This document shows, piece after piece, positions 10,592 through 61,967 of a stretch of 64,000 bases of DNA. The position numbers and the translations under genes were made by a program. Under the pieces are notes generated by a model that saw only the letters and a program-made list of their open reading frames with translations, was not told the origin of the DNA and made no database searches. The stretch is from Elsinoe ampelina (lineage: Eukaryota): the NCBI GenBank assembly GCA_010093995.1, contig ML992505.1, positions 932,273 to 996,272 on the forward strand, in the 5' to 3' direction. Numbering within the stretch: position 1 is the first letter of the stretch; the number at the start of each line of letters is the position of its first letter.

Positions 10592-10934
10592 TGTAGCGGT
10601 TGGTTTGGAGGAAGAGAAGTGCTCGCGGCTCGAGATTGATCAGAGTTGGATCTCGCTTGCAAGAGATCGGATCCAAGCTCGGTGCACGGTGACGACACCT
10701 CATCTACCATAACCCCAATGCGTTTTGAGACTGACGACTGATGATTGGCTAATTGCTCCACCCCTACAAAGGCGGCAACCTCCGAATTACCCCACCTTCA
10801 ACACGCGACGCGACAAAGTGCTATGAGACGCTTTTGAAGTGTTGTGTGTCGAGTGTTTCTGCTCTGCCTGTTCTTGCTCGCAATCCTCGATCTTGCGTGA
10901 GGTCCGGCGACAATGTCAATCTACACCGAGCATA

Positions 10935-13107
10935 ATGGTAATGAAGGTCCTCTGCGTGGCAGAGAAACCTTCGATCGCTAAAGCAGTTGCCCAGCATCTG
11001 GGAGGTGGGCAGGTCAGAAACGCAAGTATCCATGCATTATGGTTCGAAAGACATGGCTGATTGGAACAGAATCTCGCAAGCCGTCGAGAGGGTGAACACT
11101 ACATACGCAACTACGAGTTCAGCTTCGAGTTTCCAAGATGGGGACACTGCGAGGTTGTCATGACCTCGGTCACTGGCCATCTTGAGAGCCAGGACTTTGA
11201 ATCTCGTTATAGATCCTGGAACAGCTGTACCCCTGATGCTCTCTTTGAGGCCGGTATCGCAGTCTACATAGATGATGGACGGAAATTCATTGCCGAGAAT
11301 ATCGAGCGGCAAGCCCGCTACTCGCAGAAGCTTTTCATCTGGACAGATTGTGATCGCGAAGGCGAATATATTGGCACAGAAATCAGGTCTGTCGCAAGCA
11401 AATCCAATCCCCGACTTCTCCAGGCTGGAAACATTGCTCGAGCAAAATTCTCGAACATAGAGCGGCAGCATGTCATCAACGCCGCACGTAATCCTGTTGA
11501 GCTCGATGACCGGCAAGCCAACGCAGTCGGGGCGCGTATGGAGCTCGATCTTCGGATTGGCGCTTGCTTCACTCGTTTGCTCACGTTGAATCTGAAGTCA
11601 ATGATTCAACACATCTCAGAGGATGTCAAGGTCATCAGCTATGGCAGCTGTCAATTCCCAACCTTGGGCTTTGTTGTCGATCGTTACTTTCAGGTCCGAA
11701 ATTTCGTACCCGAGCCATTCTGGTCCATCAAGGTCATGCACACCAAGGACAAGATCAGAGTCAACTTTTCATGGGCTCGGAGTCGACTCTTCGATCGAAT
11801 GACCGTGGTGATCCTGTTCGAGCGATGTCTGGCTGCGAAATACGCCTCTGTGACTCGAGTGCAGCAAAAGCCAGCATCGAAGTGGCGACCGCTGCCACTC
11901 ACGACTGTCGAGCTGCAAAAGATGGGCAGTAGATATCTCCGCATCGACAGTCAGCGAATCATGACCGTGGCCGAAAAGCTTTACAACAAAGGTTTCATCA
12001 GCTACCCTCGTACGGAAACAGATCGATTCGACAGGAATGCTGATCTCCAACGACTGATTCAGAACCAAACCCAGTCAGCGACATGGGGCACGTACGCTCA
12101 GAGGTAAGCCGCGCAGAATCTCTCCTATGTCCATTGCCTGACCAAGTACAGTCTACTCGATGGGGGCTACAGATTCCCTAAAGAGGGTAGAAATGATGAC
12201 AAAGCTCACCCACCGATTCACCCAGTCACTTTTGTCACGCCGGCCAATCTCGAAAGCGACGACGAACGCAAGGTCTTGGAATTTGTTGTACGACGATTCT
12301 TAGCTTGCTGCTCGGAAGACGCACGGGGATCACGAAGCGAAGTGGAGATACTGTATGGCAGCGAGATCTTCAAGGCATCAGGCCTGACAGTCCTGGAAAA
12401 GAATTATCTCGACATCTACGTGTATGAGAAATGGACGAGCACGGAGGAACTACCTCACTTCGAAGTTGGAGAGACTTTCGAGCCTGATGAAGCCCGCATT
12501 CACGACGGTAAAACAGCAAAGCCAGGGTATCTGACTGAACCGGAATTGATCGCTCTCATGGATGCCAACGGAATCGGGACCGATGCTACCATGGCTGAGC
12601 ATATCGCAAAGATCAAAGATAGACAGTATGTGAAGGTGCAGGCTGGGACAGCTAGGCGTACTTTTGGAGACGAAGAAGAGAATGAAGGCCAGCCTGTTGC
12701 CAGGGCTGCTGGCGGAGGTCGAGGAAGACCGCCGCCGCCCATGGGCGAATTCATACCGACCACGCTCGGAGTGGCTCTATATCAAGGATATGAAAATATG
12801 GGGTTCGAGACGAGCTTGACCAAGCCGCATCTGCGCAAGGAGGTAAGCCTGGAATATGGTGGCTCATCATGACCGCTTGGCTGACATGGCATAGATGGAG
12901 CTCAAAATGAAAGAGATATGCAACGGCCGTGCAACCAAAGCGGAGGTCGTGTACGAAAGTTTGAACATGCACCGGGAGGTTTACCTACGAACGAATCAAA
13001 GGATGGAAGTCCTGCGGAGTGTATGTCTACCCGACGTCGTGTCATGGGCTATAGCTGATGAAGAATCTCAGTCCTTCAGAAGATATGTCCTCGGGGACGC
13101 TGGATGA
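10935..13107 (+). CDS. TOP3: DNA topoisomerase III (type IA), 5 exons
   Basis: TOPRIM start KVLCVAEKPSIAK, WTDCDREGE, SYGSCQFPTLGF, catalytic GFISYPRTET, AHPPIHP, GIGTDAT. Introns ~11022..11069, 12104..12151, 12843..12894, 13021..13071. Confidence 0.96.
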
Positions 13108-41666: not shown

Positions 41667-43380
41667 ATGGAACATGGACGAGATTACCGCCGGAGTCAGT
41701 CGCACACGAGTCCCCCTTGGCCCGATCAGCACTTATATCCCCATTCACATCATGGTACGCCTGCGACAGAGTACTCGGATTACGGGTGGGGACAGCCCGC
41801 CATGCCCAACCCGACCATACCATATCCTTACCAGCCCGTTGATGCCCAATACCAGATCCCTTTTGAGCAGAGACTTGATCCTCCAGCAATGCCACAGTGG
41901 CCGAGCCAGCTCACAGGTGATCACTCGAGCATGTACAAGACCATGGGAGTGCCTGCCCAACCGACCATGTTGGGTAACGAAATGTTTCCCCAGGGAATCA
42001 TGGCCACGGCGAGTGCGGCTGCTACTTCGAGCACACCCAACCCGAGACGAACACTTACGGATGACGATAGGAGGGAGATGTGTGTCTTTGCAGAGGAGAA
42101 TCCGACTCTCAAGCAGATCGAGATAGGAGGTGAGTTGACCCTTCCAGTTGCTGATCCATGTTTGACATTGTCCTAGCACGCTTCAAGGTCGATAGAAGGT
42201 ATATGCCGCATAGCGAGATATCAGGAACGACTCTCTAACACGTCACAGTACCGTCTCGAAAGTGCTTCGGCAGAAAGAAAAGTACCTCGCGGGTCGATCT
42301 CAACGCAGACCTTCAATAGCAAAGCGAGAGAAATCTCATCGGAACGAAGTCGAGCTAGCTCTGCAGAACTGGGCGAAAAAACAACGAAAGCTCAAGATGC
42401 CGCTCACCGAGGACAGCATCCGTGCCAAAGCGCTGGGATTCTCGAACGCTGCAGGCGGAGGAGAAGCCAGCAACCCAGCCACAAATCCTGGATGGGTGTC
42501 CACTTTCAAGCGAAGCTATTCTTACTCTGGATCAAGTCGAAAACCATCAGTACCAGGAGACGAATCCGAGGCCATGAGCTACACAGGCTCAAACGGCTCC
42601 AGGTCCTCGTCAGTAGCACTCTCTCCAGCCGTGAGAAACCTACGAATGATCACCAGCAACGACGACCTCCGAAGCGGCCACGGCTCCGACAGCAACTCCT
42701 CCGCCCGAAGCCCCTCCCGAGGACCAAGCATGTCCCTCTCCTCCGCAATGAACCAAGACCAACCTCCCTTCCCCAACGACTTCTTCCAAGACTCGTCCCC
42801 CTTCTTCTCCACCCCTTCCTTCACCTCCCGCGCCCACCCCCGCCCCTCCAACAAACCCCTCCGCACCGCCCCCGACCGCCCCCGCCGCAGCACCTTCCCC
42901 CGAGGCGACCCCAACCCCTACGACCCCAACCCCTACGACCCCAAACCCCCCTCCTCAAGCACCACGCTCGACTCCCCAATGGACGACTACACCACCCTCC
43001 TCGAATCCCCAGAAGAGCAGCAATACTACCCTACCTTCCCCACCCCGCACCTCTCCCACGGGCCCGCCCCCGGCATAGAACCCGACACCGTCTCCCCGAC
43101 CGACACGATGAACCCGCCCGCCCTGCCGGCGAGCAAAACCGGCATCCCGTTACCGCCCGGCGCCCCTGAACCAGCGTGGTTCAAGGAGGTCGATGACGCG
43201 AGGAGGGAGCAGCGCAGACGCAAGGCGTCGCTGCCGAGTCGGGAGCAGGCGAGGGAGGGGTTCGAGACGGCCATGAAGTATTTGAGGAAACAGACGGGGG
43301 GGTTGGGGGGGAGTGAGGAGGCGAGGGTTTTGGAGGGGGTGCAGAGGAGGTTGATGAGGGGGGGTGGTGGGGGGGTGTGA
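41667..43380 (+). CDS. CENP-B-type tandem HTH DNA-binding protein without a DDE domain, 3 coding exons
   Basis: Spliced HTH TLTDDDRREMC...KQIEIGARFKVDRSTVSKVLRQKEKY, using introns 42130..42176 and 42199..42248. Second HTH ELALQNW...IRAKA...GWVSTFK, then a Ser/Pro-rich tail. The start codon is uncertain. Confidence 0.8.
42907..42943 (+). repeat. Coding tandem repeat GACCCCAACCCCTAC x2.5 (DPNPY)
   Basis: Read directly from the sequence; encodes DPNPYDPNPYDP. Confidence 0.85.
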
Positions 43381-43970
43381 GGTTGATTGCTCGCACCATC
43401 AACAGCTGGAGGGAACGGGGAGGATTTTCGGATTTGTACAGGTGTTTTTTTTTTGGGGGATCTTTCTCTTTTGTCGAGTCTGGATCTTCTTGGATCGTTC
43501 ATCGTACGGGCATAGCAGGATCTTTGCATGGGGTACTCTCACTCGTTGGAGCCGAGACATGGCGTAGGGAACCGGGTCGGGGAGGGAGTTGTAGGGAACG
43601 AAGGAGATAGACAACCATCGGACCAGATCCATCGTCGGCGTCCGTCAATGTGAGTGTACAGGCTACACTTACCTTGGCGCTGGGGATCGGGCAGACTGTA
43701 CATACTCGCGCAAGCGAAAAGTCCGGGAACGCAGACATCAGGGAGGAGTATGGCTTGGACCGCGAACGGGGAGAGTCTCTTTTGTAGCACGGACACGAGA
43801 GGATTCGCTTTGTCTGGTCTGCACGTGCGGTACACATAAGCTGGAAGCTGGACTTGGGGTTTCTCGACGATTGTTGATGTAGGGAAATCTAGCAGCTTCC
43901 GTTACCCTCTTCTCCAACCCCTCCATTCTTTTCCTTGCTCCTTGTGTGGTACCTACCCTCCCATCACATA

Positions 43971-46900
43971 CTACGATGATTCACTCCACATCATCTCAGG
44001 AAACACCCTACAAACCACCACCTCCACCACCCCAAAGAGGAAATGCTTATTACAATACCCCTCTCCAAGCAACCCCAACATCTCCTCCACGCGCTGCACC
44101 TCCCATTCTTCCCTCCCCAAACCGCCTCTTGTTGGGCCGAAATACAACCCCCTCACGGCCCCGGGGATCAGAGAGCGTATCTCCTCTGCGCAACGCCTTC
44201 TGATGGCTACGATCTCCTCCGGGGTGGTGGGAGGGGGTTTACCTGCTCCGAGGGCGTTGTTGGGGAAGAGGTTCGTGCGCAGGGTACGCAAGAGGGAGGG
44301 TAGGCGGGAAGGTGTGAAGAGGTGGGTTGTTAGGAGGTGGGAGAGGAGTCTGTTTGGGGTTGTCAGTGGTGAGGTCTCAAGGGTGAAACGAGCACTAGGT
44401 GAAATGGGTAAAGAGAGGCACAGAAGGGGCCGACGGTGATGCGGAGGCAGAGGGGTGAATGAGCGGTCTGTTTAGGTCATCTTCGATGACGCTTGTGCTT
44501 CTGGCGGTGAGGAGTCATGATGGCTGGGTGCCGTCTTGTCGTTCTTCTCTCCTGGCGGTGAAGCTATACTGGTACGCTTGCTATGCAGCTTGCCCCCGGT
44601 ATCGGAGCAGGAGAACCAGAGTTGATGTCGGTGAGGCCCGGAGTACGTCCCATGCTTTCGTCCTCGACCTCCCCACGCTTTGCGATACATAGACGCCGGC
44701 GGATTGACCTTTGGCATTGCTTTTCGCATTACGCAGAGCATCTTCACTATCGCGATGACGCGTGCTTGCGTGGGATGCAACCCGTGCAAAAGTAGCACGT
44801 GCATTGTTTATTGTGACGCTGACAACACAGCAGACATATGCACTGCCCTGGCCTGAATTGCTCAGGTGATGTTGCGACTTTCATGGTCGACTGGTCAGGA
44901 CGGCCTGGGCTCCCCTTGACGAGACGTGGACTATCGACTGGGATTGTTGCGATCCTAGCCCGATCATTCGTGCGATACCCTCGTCAATTTGGACAGCCAT
45001 CGGTCGTTGATTGGTCGATTGCGGCCCGATGCCGTCCAGCGACAGACGTCGGTCGTCCAGGTGGGGTGTACAAAAAGTCAAGTGACTTGTACACCATGCG
45101 CGGTTGGCTGCATTAGCGTCTTGCGCGGACAGAGGCATGGCAGCCTCGTTGCATCAGCCTCTGGTCGTGCATAAGGCAGGATTTGGGGGAAAGACGGTCC
45201 CGTGTATGCATGTGTGTGCAGGTTGCAGCATGGTGGCTCTGTCCATGCGGCCGGAAGAGTACATGCAAGGCCGGCGGCAGGAGGTGCGCAATGATTCGAA
45301 GCTCGGAATGGATGTGTGGGGAAAGCTGCAAGTCCAGTCATCGCTGATTCGTCCATGCGAATCAAATTTGGTCGAATAGAAGAGCCAATTTTCCGGATCT
45401 TTTCCGCGGGGAAGAGCCTTTGACTTGGTTGAAAATGAGAAGAAGCCTTGACCAGGACCGTGAACCACTCAGACTCCATCGGATGCAGGCTTTGCTCGCC
45501 TCGGATTGCCAGATGCACCGCTGGAGAGCCCAAACAACGACGTGCATATCAAGGAAGAAGAAAATACCATGCTCCAGTGGACTAGCAGGGTGTCGCTTCG
45601 CAAAACAGGCCTCGAGTACATAGGGACATGCTTGTGTAACAGCGGAAATGATGACAAGGATTCGCAATGGGAAAAAGTGGGAAATCGACGTACCTGTCCA
45701 ATCTCGCATCAACGCCGCCGACTTGACCAGGCCCGTGGACGGCATAGTGCTGTATCAAAGCGAGCGCCCCAGTGAGCCACGGCATGCTAGTACTGAGACC
45801 CAAGATCGTAAACGGCACGCGCCAGGCTGACATTCGAATGATCGGCGTTCGGGATGGCTTGGTTGCAGAATCCTGTACGACATCGCTTCTGCTCGACGCA
45901 TTCGGGTTGGGCGAACTGGTAAATGAAGAGGAGGGTGACCAAGTGACCGAATTGCCGCTTGACGTAGGCTCATGTTCCACACGGCGCGCAGGTAGGTATA
46001 CAGCGTCCGACAGAGCAATAAAGACAGCCCGGATGACTCCATGTATCAAGATACCGATGCGAAGCAATTCCCATCCTGCGTTGATGATCATGGCGTATAC
46101 GCTTCTTGCACGTTGTCTGGCCCGATCCGGTGCCCTGGTCGGTGCCTCCGCCGAGAGAAGACCAAATTGTTCTAGACGTGCTGCTTTCTTTGGATTAAGA
46201 TTGTCCGGAACAGCAGTCCCGTCGGTCCGCACTGCTTGGATCGCTTTGGTGATACCTTCCCACAGGAACCACCCTTCGCTGACCTTGCCGCCCAATACAT
46301 TGCCAATGATCATCTCTGAGAATATCTCGTTGACCAAGACTTTTAGACAAGGGTTCTGGAGATCTTCGGGGGGAAGTAGTAGCTCGAGGACGCCTTCGAT
46401 TAGTAGCTGTCGCCATGCCGCCTCGTTGCTTTGTTGTGCAACCACGGTTTCAGGGTCTGATTCTGTTGGGACTGGTGAAAGCGCCGGACGAGGGTGTAGC
46501 GAATGATAGACTGTCCGAGTATTGGCCCCTAGTAATGATGATGTCGGATCTTGGGATGAAGAGGTTGCGATTCGATATGCTTGAACGGCGTCAAAATAGA
46601 TTACAAGGATAGACTAGGATTCCCTTACCTTTGGCGTGTTGGTTCAATAGCTCTGGAATCTCATCAAGTAGTAACGCCTCCAAATCCACTCTTCGTAACC
46701 GCTGCTCGAATCCACGGGTGCAATGCGCAATGATCTGTACGATCTCATCGACGAATTCATGGTCGGGAGTGATCTTCGAATACCAGGTCTGCACGAATTG
46801 CTTGATGATGACGGCTATGATTCCGTAGAGCTGTAGATCGACCTCATTTGAACTGGTCAGAGGCGGAAGCAGCTCATCCAACGATTGCGAGTTGCTCAGG

Positions 46901-47115
46901 TCTGCTCCAGGCTTGAGATGTCCTCCACAAAGAGTCCTGCGGACAAAGGTGGCTGTTGCCGCATCGTTCCTTTCGTTCTCTGTCGCCTTTTTATCGTTTC
47001 GTCTAACGCGAACATCTCTGTCGCTCTGACTGTCATTGCCCCGAGTGGTCCTTGACGACGACTTTTGCCGTAGATGTGCTGGTCGCGCGGGACCTTTGAT
47101 GCCGAGTGCACTCAT
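43971..47115 (-). CDS. PXA-domain protein with a nexin C-terminal-like region, 3 exons (47115..46629, 46579..45694, 44349..43971)
   Basis: PXA motifs LLPPLTSSNEVDLQLY...WYSKITPD and LLPPEDLQNPC. The last exon ends YCNKHFLFGVVEVVVCRVFPEM. A 1344-nt intron (GTACGT at 45693; CTGAC...CAG at 44350) joins RLD-R-LLSHLL in frame. Confidence 0.85.
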
Positions 47116-47276
47116 CGCTGCACATGTTTGGCGTGACAATCGCAAGAGACACTCCTCGTCTTCACATGTCGAATCGCAATTTGAGATGCATGGTCCCTCC
47201 AGTGTTTTGAACAAGGCCAAGTTCCCGAGACATGATGGGAAATTAGGCTTTTGATGCCAAGCCCACACCATCAGCA

Positions 47277-60323: not shown

Positions 60324-61967
60324 CTACTTACACCTCTTATCCACAATACTCGCCCCATGCTCCTCATACTCCTTCTTACTAATCCACATCTGATGAAACG
60401 TCCCCAAACTGGCCAGCACACTGCCCCCAATCCACGCCCCAAACTTCTTATCCGTCACCGCCCCGGACGCATGCACCCTCACCCTCGGATTCGGGTACAT
60501 GACCGACAACTCGGCCTGAATCCTCTCGGGCAACCGCTCGATCAAACTCCCCGCCCCCGTGAGCACAATCTGATTCAGCAGCTGCGCGCGACTGTCCACG
60601 TCGACCCCGTTCAACGCCGCCTTGACCAGCTCGGGGATCGTCTGCTTCTCCTCCGGCGCCGGCGAGTTCGGGTCGCGCAACGCGGCCTTGGCGTCGAACA
60701 GACCCTCGACGACGCGGAAGCGTTCCACGCCAAACACCTGGTTCCAGCCGTCGGGCATCTCGAAGGGGCGAGGGGGGAGAGAGCGCGCGGCTTCGAGGTT
60801 CTGGTGCACGCCTGCGGGGTCGGTGGCGTCGAGACGGCCGGGGCCGGACCAGACTTGGACCATGGATTCTTTGAAGGAGGTGAGGACGCGGTCTTCTTGG
60901 AGGCGGCGGAAGGAGGGGGACGGGGGGTGGGTGAATTGGATGAGGGTGGCTTTGGAGTCTTGGCCTGCGTCGACTTGGGTTTTGGATTTGACGAGGTAGT
61001 GGGGTGTGAGAGGGACGGGCGGGTTCATTTGGGAGAACTGGAGGCGGAGTTGGTTGGAGATCCAGTTGGAGCCGAGGGGGGAGCGTTGGGTTGCTGGGAG
61101 GGGGTCAGTAATGGGTGTATGAATGGGGTAGACGAAGCTCAGATAGATGGGGGCGCAGTGAGACCACGTGCTCTTTGGCCAAACCAGAAGCCGTCGCTGG
61201 TGAGAAAGAGCGCATTGGAGGGAATTCCGGCTGCTTGAGAGATATTTACTGACCTTTCTTGGTAAAAAAGCCATCCAGTACCGGCGTGACCGAGACCTGA
61301 TTCGCACCCACATCTATCACCAGCGCATTTGGCTTCCCCGAAGCAAACCTATGCCTCTGTCAGCTCTCTCCTATACCACACTCCCGACCAGAACCCACGC
61401 AGCAAGCATCCCGGTCCTCCCCATCCAAAACGCCGGCACCCCCCAATTCTCAAACGCAATCTCCATCGTCTTCTCCCTCGACTTTGACGGATTCCACGCC
61501 GGCTCCGTCATCAGCAACGGATTCTCCTCCATCGGTTTCTCCGCCTGCTCCACCACCTTATCCATGTCCACATCCCCCTCCCCATCTCCATTCGTGTCGT
61601 TTAGCCCGTTCTTGCTCGGCGCCGTCGGCGCTGGCCCCGTCAACCGTGACGTTATGGAGTACTCGAATAGTTTGGCCGCCACGTCCCAGTCGTCTATTAA
61701 GCTTTCTTCGTTGAAGGGGTTCTTGATGTCCATGTGCGCGAGGGGGTTGTGTATCGAGTTGTCCCCGAAGAGGAGCTTGGAGCCGCCATCTGGTGGGTTG
61801 TGCGCGCCGTAGAATGAGGGGACGACGGATTTGGGTATGTCTTCTCCTGCGAAACCTGCTCGTATCGTGTGCGACCCGGGGTCGAGGACGAGGGCATTGA
61901 TTTCGTCTCCGGCGTACTCTTGCGCCCCGGGAGGTACGGAGGGATTGAGGGTCGGGTGGCCAGACAT
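60324..61967 (-). CDS. ARP4: Actin-related protein 4 (NuA4/INO80/SWR1), 3 exons
   Basis: [72 protein letters not shown]. Introns 61398..61349 and 61253..61094. Confidence 0.93.

Follow-up and report, generated by a model that had tools for sequence, protein, structure and literature searches.

Conserved elements in fungal introns

Filamentous fungi keep their introns near 50-100 nucleotides (nt). Long regulated introns are known from yeast, including the autoregulated intron of YRA1, and 'zipper' stems shorten long introns there. Conserved intronic RNAs of Pezizomycotina have been described by Gao, Jones and Rivas (2021, PMC8216456), among them an intronic small nucleolar RNA (snoRNA) termed 'H/ACA snoRNA intronic' and intron structures of the metacaspase 1B and lysyl-tRNA synthetase genes. 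Introner-like elements are characterized, in the available part of Collemare et al. (2013, PMC3609843), by many near-identical copies, recent gains and lower folding energy. The subject of the present analysis is the second intron of a gene for a PXA domain-containing protein in Elsinoe ampelina, which lies in a 64,000-nt stretch of contig ML992505.1 (assembly GCA_010093995.1, positions 932,273 to 996,272), referred to below as the window. The intron occupies positions 44350-45693 of the minus strand (1344 nt, phase 2, GT..AG) and is read as carrying a conserved non-coding element, either cis-acting or hosted. The object of interest is an ancient long intron with a conserved and apparently undescribed non-coding motif, commonly mis-annotated, rather than the large RNA fold that a sequence-only reading had proposed for it.

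Splicing of the long intron

Four sequencing runs were compared over positions 43900-47200. Three of them (X3, X4 and X7, from three studies) were guessed to be RNA, and their spliced contigs show that RNA is present in them; the fourth (X12) is DNA of a sister species, organism C. In X3 and X7, contigs with 255 letters on either side of the joint link 44349 directly to 45694 and skip 1344 nt bounded by CT..AC on the plus strand, which is GT..AG on the gene strand. A contig of X4 makes the same joint, with a short side of only 26 letters. Five orthologous proteins (P0001-P0005, from Elsinoe australis, Sphaceloma murrayae and Myriangium duriaei, with two further proteins) are contiguous at this point (..ARLDR|LLSH..). 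The 1344-nt gap is a genuine spliced U2-type GT-AG intron, for which splice signals, an RNA joint and a continuous frame were all found, and the boundaries 45693 and 44350 given by the sequence-only reading are confirmed by the RNA-like joints and the contiguous orthologs.

The 5' splice site is GTACGT (45688-45693, minus strand). The branch motif CTGAC and the 3' splice site CAG lie within 44350-44366 of the same strand; the acceptor AG is at 44351-44350, and the branch A at 44363 is 13 nt before its G at 44350. Both ends are placed by the sequence and by the joint in the contigs. If the intron stays in, translation meets a stop after 0-36 codons. X3, X4 and X7 show neither an internal exon nor an alternative joint, and the frame of exon 3 has no in-frame start upstream. 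Inside the intron, the contigs of X3 leave 45609-45693 uncovered, those of X4 end at 45203 and those of X7 at 44799. A candidate internal start near 45608 was dropped because a single run (X3) stops there.

Conservation of intron position and length

Metagenome contigs were scanned with an alignment of 30 orthologs, which yielded 80 fungal loci. By best protein match these are Pleosporales-, Helotiales-, Xylariales- and Capnodiales-like, with some from more distant lineages. A tblastn match of P0001 stops at residue 453 (..DR|LL..) in the 45 loci that have both flanking exons, and it resumes 539-1888 nt later in 44 of them. The introns of the related loci show GTRAGT-type donors and recognisable branch and acceptor contexts. 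Their intron 1, where visible, has about 45-60 nt (e.g., L059, L063, L069). The sole exception at the long intron is locus L016, with a 49-nt intron at the conserved position (L016:6222-6270, on a 303-kb contig), a natural 'intron-shortened' comparison. Four further loci (L003, L005, L014 and L066) are uninterrupted at the junction and cDNA-like.

The intron is ancient, with the same phase-2 position and a length of 0.5-1.9 kb across distantly related filamentous ascomycetes. Its position and length are shared across classes, and it is therefore not a recent insertion. A kilobase intron that is held at one codon across classes and contains invariant non-coding blocks marks something under selection.

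A conserved motif within the intron

An all-against-all blastn comparison of 35 introns revealed a 25-35-nt block common to different classes. On the sense strand this block (block A) reads CCGCAT-N8-AGTCACTTGACTT, where N8 is often GAGATTTC; in generalised form it is CCGCAT-N8-RRTCA-NN-TGAYYT, with fixed internal spacing. In the window, block A (CGCATG-N8-AGTCACTTGACTT) is found at 45075-45100 of the minus strand, with the core AGTC-ACTT-GACT at 45087-45076. Three class-specific nhmmer profiles match positions 45072-45103 of that strand with E values of 0.004, 0.025 and 0.0019, and a profile of the motif itself has its best match in the whole 64-kb window at 45100-45075 (E 0.0018). The window copy matches that of locus L012 at 20 of 24 bases. 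It sits at the tip of the hairpin 45065-45095, within the best-conserved part of the intron.

The motif profile matches 28 of the 34 introns other than that of the window at E<=0.02, always on the sense strand and at a distance of 64-205 nt from the donor. It had been built from 25 of them, which leaves only L010, L041 and L049 as independent matches. Exactly one motif occurs in 41 of the 80 loci and two occur in none (507 kb of loci). A composite regular expression is found in 49 of the 80 loci as 30 distinct sequences, all of which keep the 8-base spacing to CCGCAT. Judged at the level of sequence, the same motif in the same place and orientation in distant lineages exceeds chance and indicates a conserved non-coding element.

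The core of the motif can form a 4-bp hairpin, AGUC-ANNU-GACU, with an ANNU loop whose centres are CT, GA, TA, TC or TG. Pairs 3 and 4 of the stem are the same in every sequence. Pair 1 occurs as AU, GU or GC and pair 2 as GC, GU or AU, but A-C mismatches are found as well. The flanks of the hairpin in the window add 8-9 bp and are stronger than shuffled flanks (z -2.57, p 0.013), in the window only and not in relatives. Related fungi share the motif alone, always in the host sense and without a surrounding fold.

A second box, YTTACGCGCC, is located 280-590 nt into the intron; 18 of 34 introns have it in the form TACGCG[CT]C, among them those of the Xylariales-like loci L018 and L024. The conserved blocks of Pleosporales-like introns span about 570 nt. 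The last 130 nt of these introns (L001, L062, L064, L069, L070 and others) share the block CCGCGGAYT and, some 60-70 nt ahead of the AG, a CCAAT-like GCGCCAATCA. No pairing partner was found for a conserved TGGTTGG block. The second box can, by eye, be paired with the donor site in 17 of 18 introns, but the consensus sequences make this nearly inevitable and it carries no information. The core of block A may resemble part of a spliceosomal small nuclear RNA. An interpretation of block A as an alternative acceptor with a coding exon was rejected, as the blocks have no third-position pattern and no supporting tblastx matches.

Divergence from the sister species

A contig of X12 (103,658 letters) carries the whole gene and intron of organism C with 90-95% likeness. 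The aligned pieces correspond to 43989-44607, 44694-44918, 44922-45327 and 45381-47175 of the window. Between them, 44608-44693 is replaced by 9 letters in the contig alignment, 44919-44921 by 43 foreign letters and 45328-45380 by 4 letters. Exon 3 shows 36 listed differences from organism C, of which 25 fall on its 120 third codon positions (20.8%); a further 170 differences stand outside the listing. The aligned parts of the intron differ at 27 of 258, 21 of 225 and 23 of 406 positions, in total 71 of 889 (8.0%, range 5.7-10.5%; Fisher p 4.5e-5 against the third positions of exon 3). The best-conserved part, 44922-45327, differs at 23 of 406 positions (5.7%; Fisher p 5e-6 against 25 of 120). 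Most of the alignable intron sequence thus changes more slowly than the neighbouring third codon positions.

A 53-nt stretch, 45310-45362, recurs on a second contig of organism C with four differences, on the other strand and in unrelated surroundings. Positions 45328-45380 are absent from the orthologous intron of that species; the stretch is possibly a small dispersed repeat.

Searches for coding sequence, repeats and known RNA classes

The sequence-only reading had found no convincing open reading frame (ORF) or transposon feature in the intron, and this was borne out. None of the 18 intron ORFs of at least 50 aa matches Pfam, and tblastx between divergent introns gives short matches over the nucleotide blocks only, with no coding conservation. 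The longest intron ORF, of 156 aa (45081-45548, minus strand), was rejected as a candidate; it has no homolog at E<=0.01. Insertions and deletions of one and two bases in organism C break every long intron ORF. Further copies were also sought: there is no second copy of the intron in the 64-kb window, and among the DNA contigs of organism C only the ortholog and the 53-nt piece reach a likeness of >=80%.

Rfam 15, whose families include C/D snoRNAs, RNase P/MRP, SRP RNA, snRNAs and the thiamine pyrophosphate (TPP) riboswitch, gave no match at E<=10 in window positions 43500-46500 and none at E<=1 in 10 related loci. Inspection of the alignments by eye showed no conserved H/ACA or C/D layout and no H or ACA box kept at the ends of the conserved domains; a dedicated H/ACA finder was not used, and the domain has an ACA after it in just 4-5 of 11 sequences, again by eye. 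Telomerase RNA was rejected as a candidate: a template-like 7-mer is present in 4 of 35 introns and absent from the window. The box motifs of snR30 are scattered, in 7 and 3 of 35 introns, and this candidate was rejected too. RNAalifold showed no convincing covariation in the 5' domain or the second-box domain of Pleosporales-like introns.

The proposed RNA fold

The sequence-only reading had proposed a structured RNA of about 585 nt at 44880-45464, closed by an 18-bp helix and lying on the plus strand, antisense to the host. All motifs that it quoted are present at their positions. The closing helix, with its 5' arm at 44880-44899 and its 3' arm at 45447-45464 (plus strand), is an 18-bp helix interrupted by a 2-nt bulge, with two G-U pairs that can form on the plus strand only. 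The plus-strand minimum free energy (MFE) structure of 44880-45464 keeps six of the seven named helices, namely the closing helix and five of the six inner ones, while GGACAGAG/CTCTGTCC is missing. The hairpin GGTGTACAA/TTGTACACC (45065-45095), which encloses the core of block A, is present in this fold.

On one helix score used for all sequences, the closing helix reaches 32, which is only the fourth best inside the intron and below the mean best helix of 200 dinucleotide shuffles (35.1, standard deviation 3.7) and of 90 real 1344-nt tiles of the window (36.0). The folding z of the whole intron is near that of shuffles (-0.51 on the plus and +0.94 on the minus strand, 25 shuffles each). The 585-nt domain gives -3.13 and -3.16 on the plus strand and -1.74 on the minus strand, values obtained after its ends had been chosen at a helix. 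Twenty-six control domains elsewhere in the window, made by the same recipe (best long-range helix, then folding of the enclosed sequence), have a mean z of about -1.05, and two of them reach -4.09 and -3.01, so that the 585-nt domain ranks second of 27. As a whole, the predicted 585-nt fold is at best borderline, and the large plus-strand structure would mostly be expected of any sequence of such composition.

The comparison with organism C bears on the same structure. The 43 foreign letters at 44919-44921 fall inside the TTGACGAG arm, and the replacement of 45328-45380 removes the GATTCG/CGAATC hairpin. Two named helices are broken by these insertions and deletions, and other classes lack the fold; the 585-nt fold is not supported.

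Some observations were made on the arms and the controls. The 3' arm of the closing helix (45447-45465) resembles exon 2 at 45722-45740, about 30 nt before the donor, with 17 of 19 identical positions; the blastn E value of 0.87 is of chance size. The 5' arm (44891-44904) is consequently also 86% complementary to that exon stretch. The lowest control z (-4.09) belongs to a helix-delimited domain of 433 nt on the minus strand of tile 10753-12096. Tile 60481-61824 contains a long-range helix with a score of 67, against a mean of 36 elsewhere, which is probably a strong inverted repeat; its enclosed domain has the z of -3.01.

Possible roles of the element

The conserved blocks would act in cis on the pre-mRNA as protein-binding sites and would set the removal efficiency of a slow, long intron. 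Removal of the intron would in turn set the balance between the full-length protein and a product truncated right after ..LDR, with the PXA part only. This account, in which binding sites on the pre-mRNA govern intron removal and hence the ratio of full-length to PXA-only product, is favoured tentatively from the sequence comparisons, though it falls short of being probable; what we infer is that the blocks work as RNA and that they affect splicing. Several observations weigh against it. Sequence conservation alone leaves the acting strand, and the choice between RNA and DNA, undecided, and the core is nearly palindromic. Six of the 34 introns have no motif at E<=0.02, the second box was not found in the window, and the extended stem around the motif is not conserved outside the window. 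The motif of E. ampelina is 594 nt from the donor instead of 64-205 nt, which means that a strict rule of distance to the 5' splice site fails here. The covariation term of RNAalifold for the Pleosporales-like alignment is +0.25, and the five double-change pairs compare with 2.4 +/- 1.2 in shuffles, 22 of 500 of which reach five. The divergence test covers 120 third positions and the alignable intron parts, with three segments replaced in organism C. Intron retention is suggested, and not demonstrated, by contigs of intron sequence in the RNA-like runs (X3, 44334-45608; X4, 44324-44739, 44764-45001 and 44948-45203; X7, 44365-44799), which extend only 16 and 26 letters into exon 3, short of the 31 letters required, and are unstranded.

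Alternatively, the intron may host an independent non-coding RNA (ncRNA) from the sense strand, such as a stable RNA derived from the intron, a snoRNA-like RNA or a long ncRNA of scaffold type, whose protein-binding boxes would be the conserved blocks and whose host-gene arrangement would be preserved like that of intronic snoRNAs. Short invariant blocks with variable spacers, extending over some 570 nt of Pleosporales-like introns, agree with such an RNA, as do the intron contigs in the RNA-like runs and the sense-strand G-U pairs that dominate two predicted helices. The long length kept in 44 of 45 loci would not be needed for a single 30-nt cis site, and such host arrangements exist (PMC8216456). 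The Rfam, H/ACA, snR30 and telomere-template results and the unconvincing covariation speak against it, and E. ampelina shows a recognisable block A only; on balance a hosted RNA is rather unlikely. Lower still stands a DNA element, that is, an intronic enhancer or internal promoter in which a dimeric factor would bind the near-palindrome TCA-NN-TGA, set at a fixed spacing from CCGCAT. In its favour, the two halves of the core form an almost perfect inverted repeat around a 2-bp centre that varies, changes on one side only would be mismatches in RNA (e.g., A-C at pair 2, found in 4 of the 30 distinct sequences), the 8-bp spacing to CCGCAT is fixed in 30 of 30 sequences, no extended RNA stem is conserved, and Pleosporales-like introns also have the CCAAT-like block. 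Such a role is nevertheless improbable: across 28 lineages the donor distance and the orientation hardly change while the remainder of the intron differs by more than 1 kb, which is explained more easily at the RNA level, and neither an internal exon or alternative joint nor an in-frame start upstream of exon 3 was found. That the long intron is neutral, as a decayed introner-like element or old insertion with no function, is very unlikely. It is long, non-coding and in a Dothideomycete, a class in which the available part of PMC3609843 describes introner-like elements, and nothing that corresponds to the first 590 nt of the Elsinoe intron is seen in other classes. Its position and length are nevertheless shared across classes, the motif is conserved, divergence is slower than at third codon positions, and the copy searches of the window and of the organism C contigs (>=80% likeness) returned no further intron. 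An introner-like element was rejected on the same counts, with no multiple copies in the window or the organism C contigs, no recent gain and folding not above shuffles. Least credible, and hardly to be expected, is the structured antisense RNA of the sequence-only reading. Its z on the plus strand, the strand preference of its closing G-U pairs, the six helices of the MFE fold and its overlap with the best-conserved part of the intron are in its favour. Against these stand a closing helix below the typical best shuffle helix, equally selected controls with one lower and one equal z, a whole intron no more stable than shuffles, an arm interrupted and a hairpin deleted in organism C, and relatives that share the motif and not the fold.

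The earlier observation is thus partly confirmed and its interpretation partly supported. Position, length and motif are conserved in the orthologous introns, and a non-coding functional element does appear to lie inside the marked domain, at 45075-45100; conservation does not extend to the large antisense fold. Of the alternative that it offered, a folding element controlling splicing, an influence on splicing is retained as the most likely reading and the extended fold is not. A further claim, possible but doubtful, is that an undescribed ncRNA module (CCGCAU-N8-hairpin and, in many lineages, a UUACGCGCC box) has been kept for hundreds of millions of years in a position-locked, kilobase-long PXA/Nexin_C intron of filamentous ascomycetes, either as a new hosted RNA or as a switch between full-length and PXA-only products. 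Should the element control intron removal, it would offer a simple case, amenable to testing, of a long fungal intron that governs isoforms; as a hosted RNA, it would represent a new RNA family.

The host gene and its annotation

The host gene is encoded on the minus strand by three exons. Exon 1 (47115-46630 in the gene model) contains the first half of the PXA domain and is 100% identical to P0040, recorded as 'PXA domain-containing protein [Elsinoe ampelina]'. Intron 1 (46580-46628, minus strand) is an ordinary short intron of 49 nt; contigs of X3 and X4 span its joint, 46579 to 46629, with 255 letters on either side. The sequence-only reading had put the long intron at least 8 times above any other coding intron that it modelled; the comparison made here covers this gene, with these 49 nt as its only other intron. 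Exon 2 (45694-46579, minus strand), covered by contigs of the RNA runs, encodes the second PXA half and a linker. The two halves match Pfam PF02194 with E values of 1.8e-25 (exon 1) and 1.8e-20 (exon 2). Exon 3 (43971-44349, minus strand) encodes the last 126 codons and the stop, aligns with ortholog C-termini and is weakly Nexin_C-like (Pfam PF08628, E 0.012, under the curated cut-off). The long intron therefore separates the PXA-containing part from the C-terminal Nexin_C-like part.

The record P0040 (494 aa) consists exactly of exon 1, exon 2 and 36 read-through codons (window 45582-47115, minus strand), and ends in ..ARLDRYVDFPL..ATPC. It reads through the donor site, and the public record consequently overlooks the 1344-nt intron and lacks the 126 C-terminal codons. 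Two Alternaria records, P0048 and P0093, stop at ..LDR, and many public records of the family have 456-464 aa. These truncated orthologous records fit a failure of gene predictors at the same intron, and the C-terminal Nexin_C-like exon appears to be widely missed. In practical terms, the records of E. ampelina and many Pleosporales are truncated, and the Nexin_C-like part is missing from many public proteomes.

At 44474 (intron), contigs of X4, X7 and organism C have G where the window has A, and at 46489 (exon 2) they have T where it has C; both are strain differences, with the rarer letter in the window. A convergent neighbour at 42214-43380 (plus strand) has a 388-codon open frame with a very proline-rich second half, within a stretch of 62-69% G+C and strong GC skew.

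Comparison with known systems

The element is not mentioned in Rfam or in the available parts of two surveys of fungal RNA motifs (PMC8216456 and PMC5640933). The words PXA, phox and nexin are absent from the available main text of PMC8216456, and identity with the snoRNA host named there ('vacuolar sorting protein') is neither shown nor excluded; the available part of Li and Breaker (2017, PMC5640933) has no mention of PXA, phox or sorting nexin. A literature search on the letters of the motif, on intron retention in fungal PXA-domain genes and on conserved ncRNA in long Pezizomycotina introns returned nothing relevant.

Introner-like elements, as the available part of PMC3609843 presents them, resemble the PXA intron in being longer than regular introns, with canonical splice signals, in a Dothideomycete. 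They differ from it in that the PXA intron is single copy where testable, holds an ancient position and, taken whole, is no more stably folded than its shuffles. The fungal TPP riboswitch introns also contain a conserved element, which decides the splice outcome, whereas the PXA intron has no Rfam TPP match and its host gene has no link to thiamine. Unlike the zipper stems of yeast, the candidate zipper helix here contains two A-C mismatches when read on the pre-mRNA strand and does not exceed chance in quality, and to our knowledge no autoregulatory protein comparable to that of YRA1 acts on the PXA intron. The likeness to YRA1-type introns lies in an unusual length within a short-intron genome, where slow removal could set the level of product. 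The intronic elements of Gao, Jones and Rivas (PMC8216456) are defined by significant covariation, and the snoRNA also by its H and ACA boxes, whereas covariation here is weak and an H/ACA layout was not found. With these elements the PXA intron shares a non-coding element fixed in one host-gene intron across classes of filamentous ascomycetes, in a single copy per genome there and with at most one copy per locus in the 80 loci studied here.

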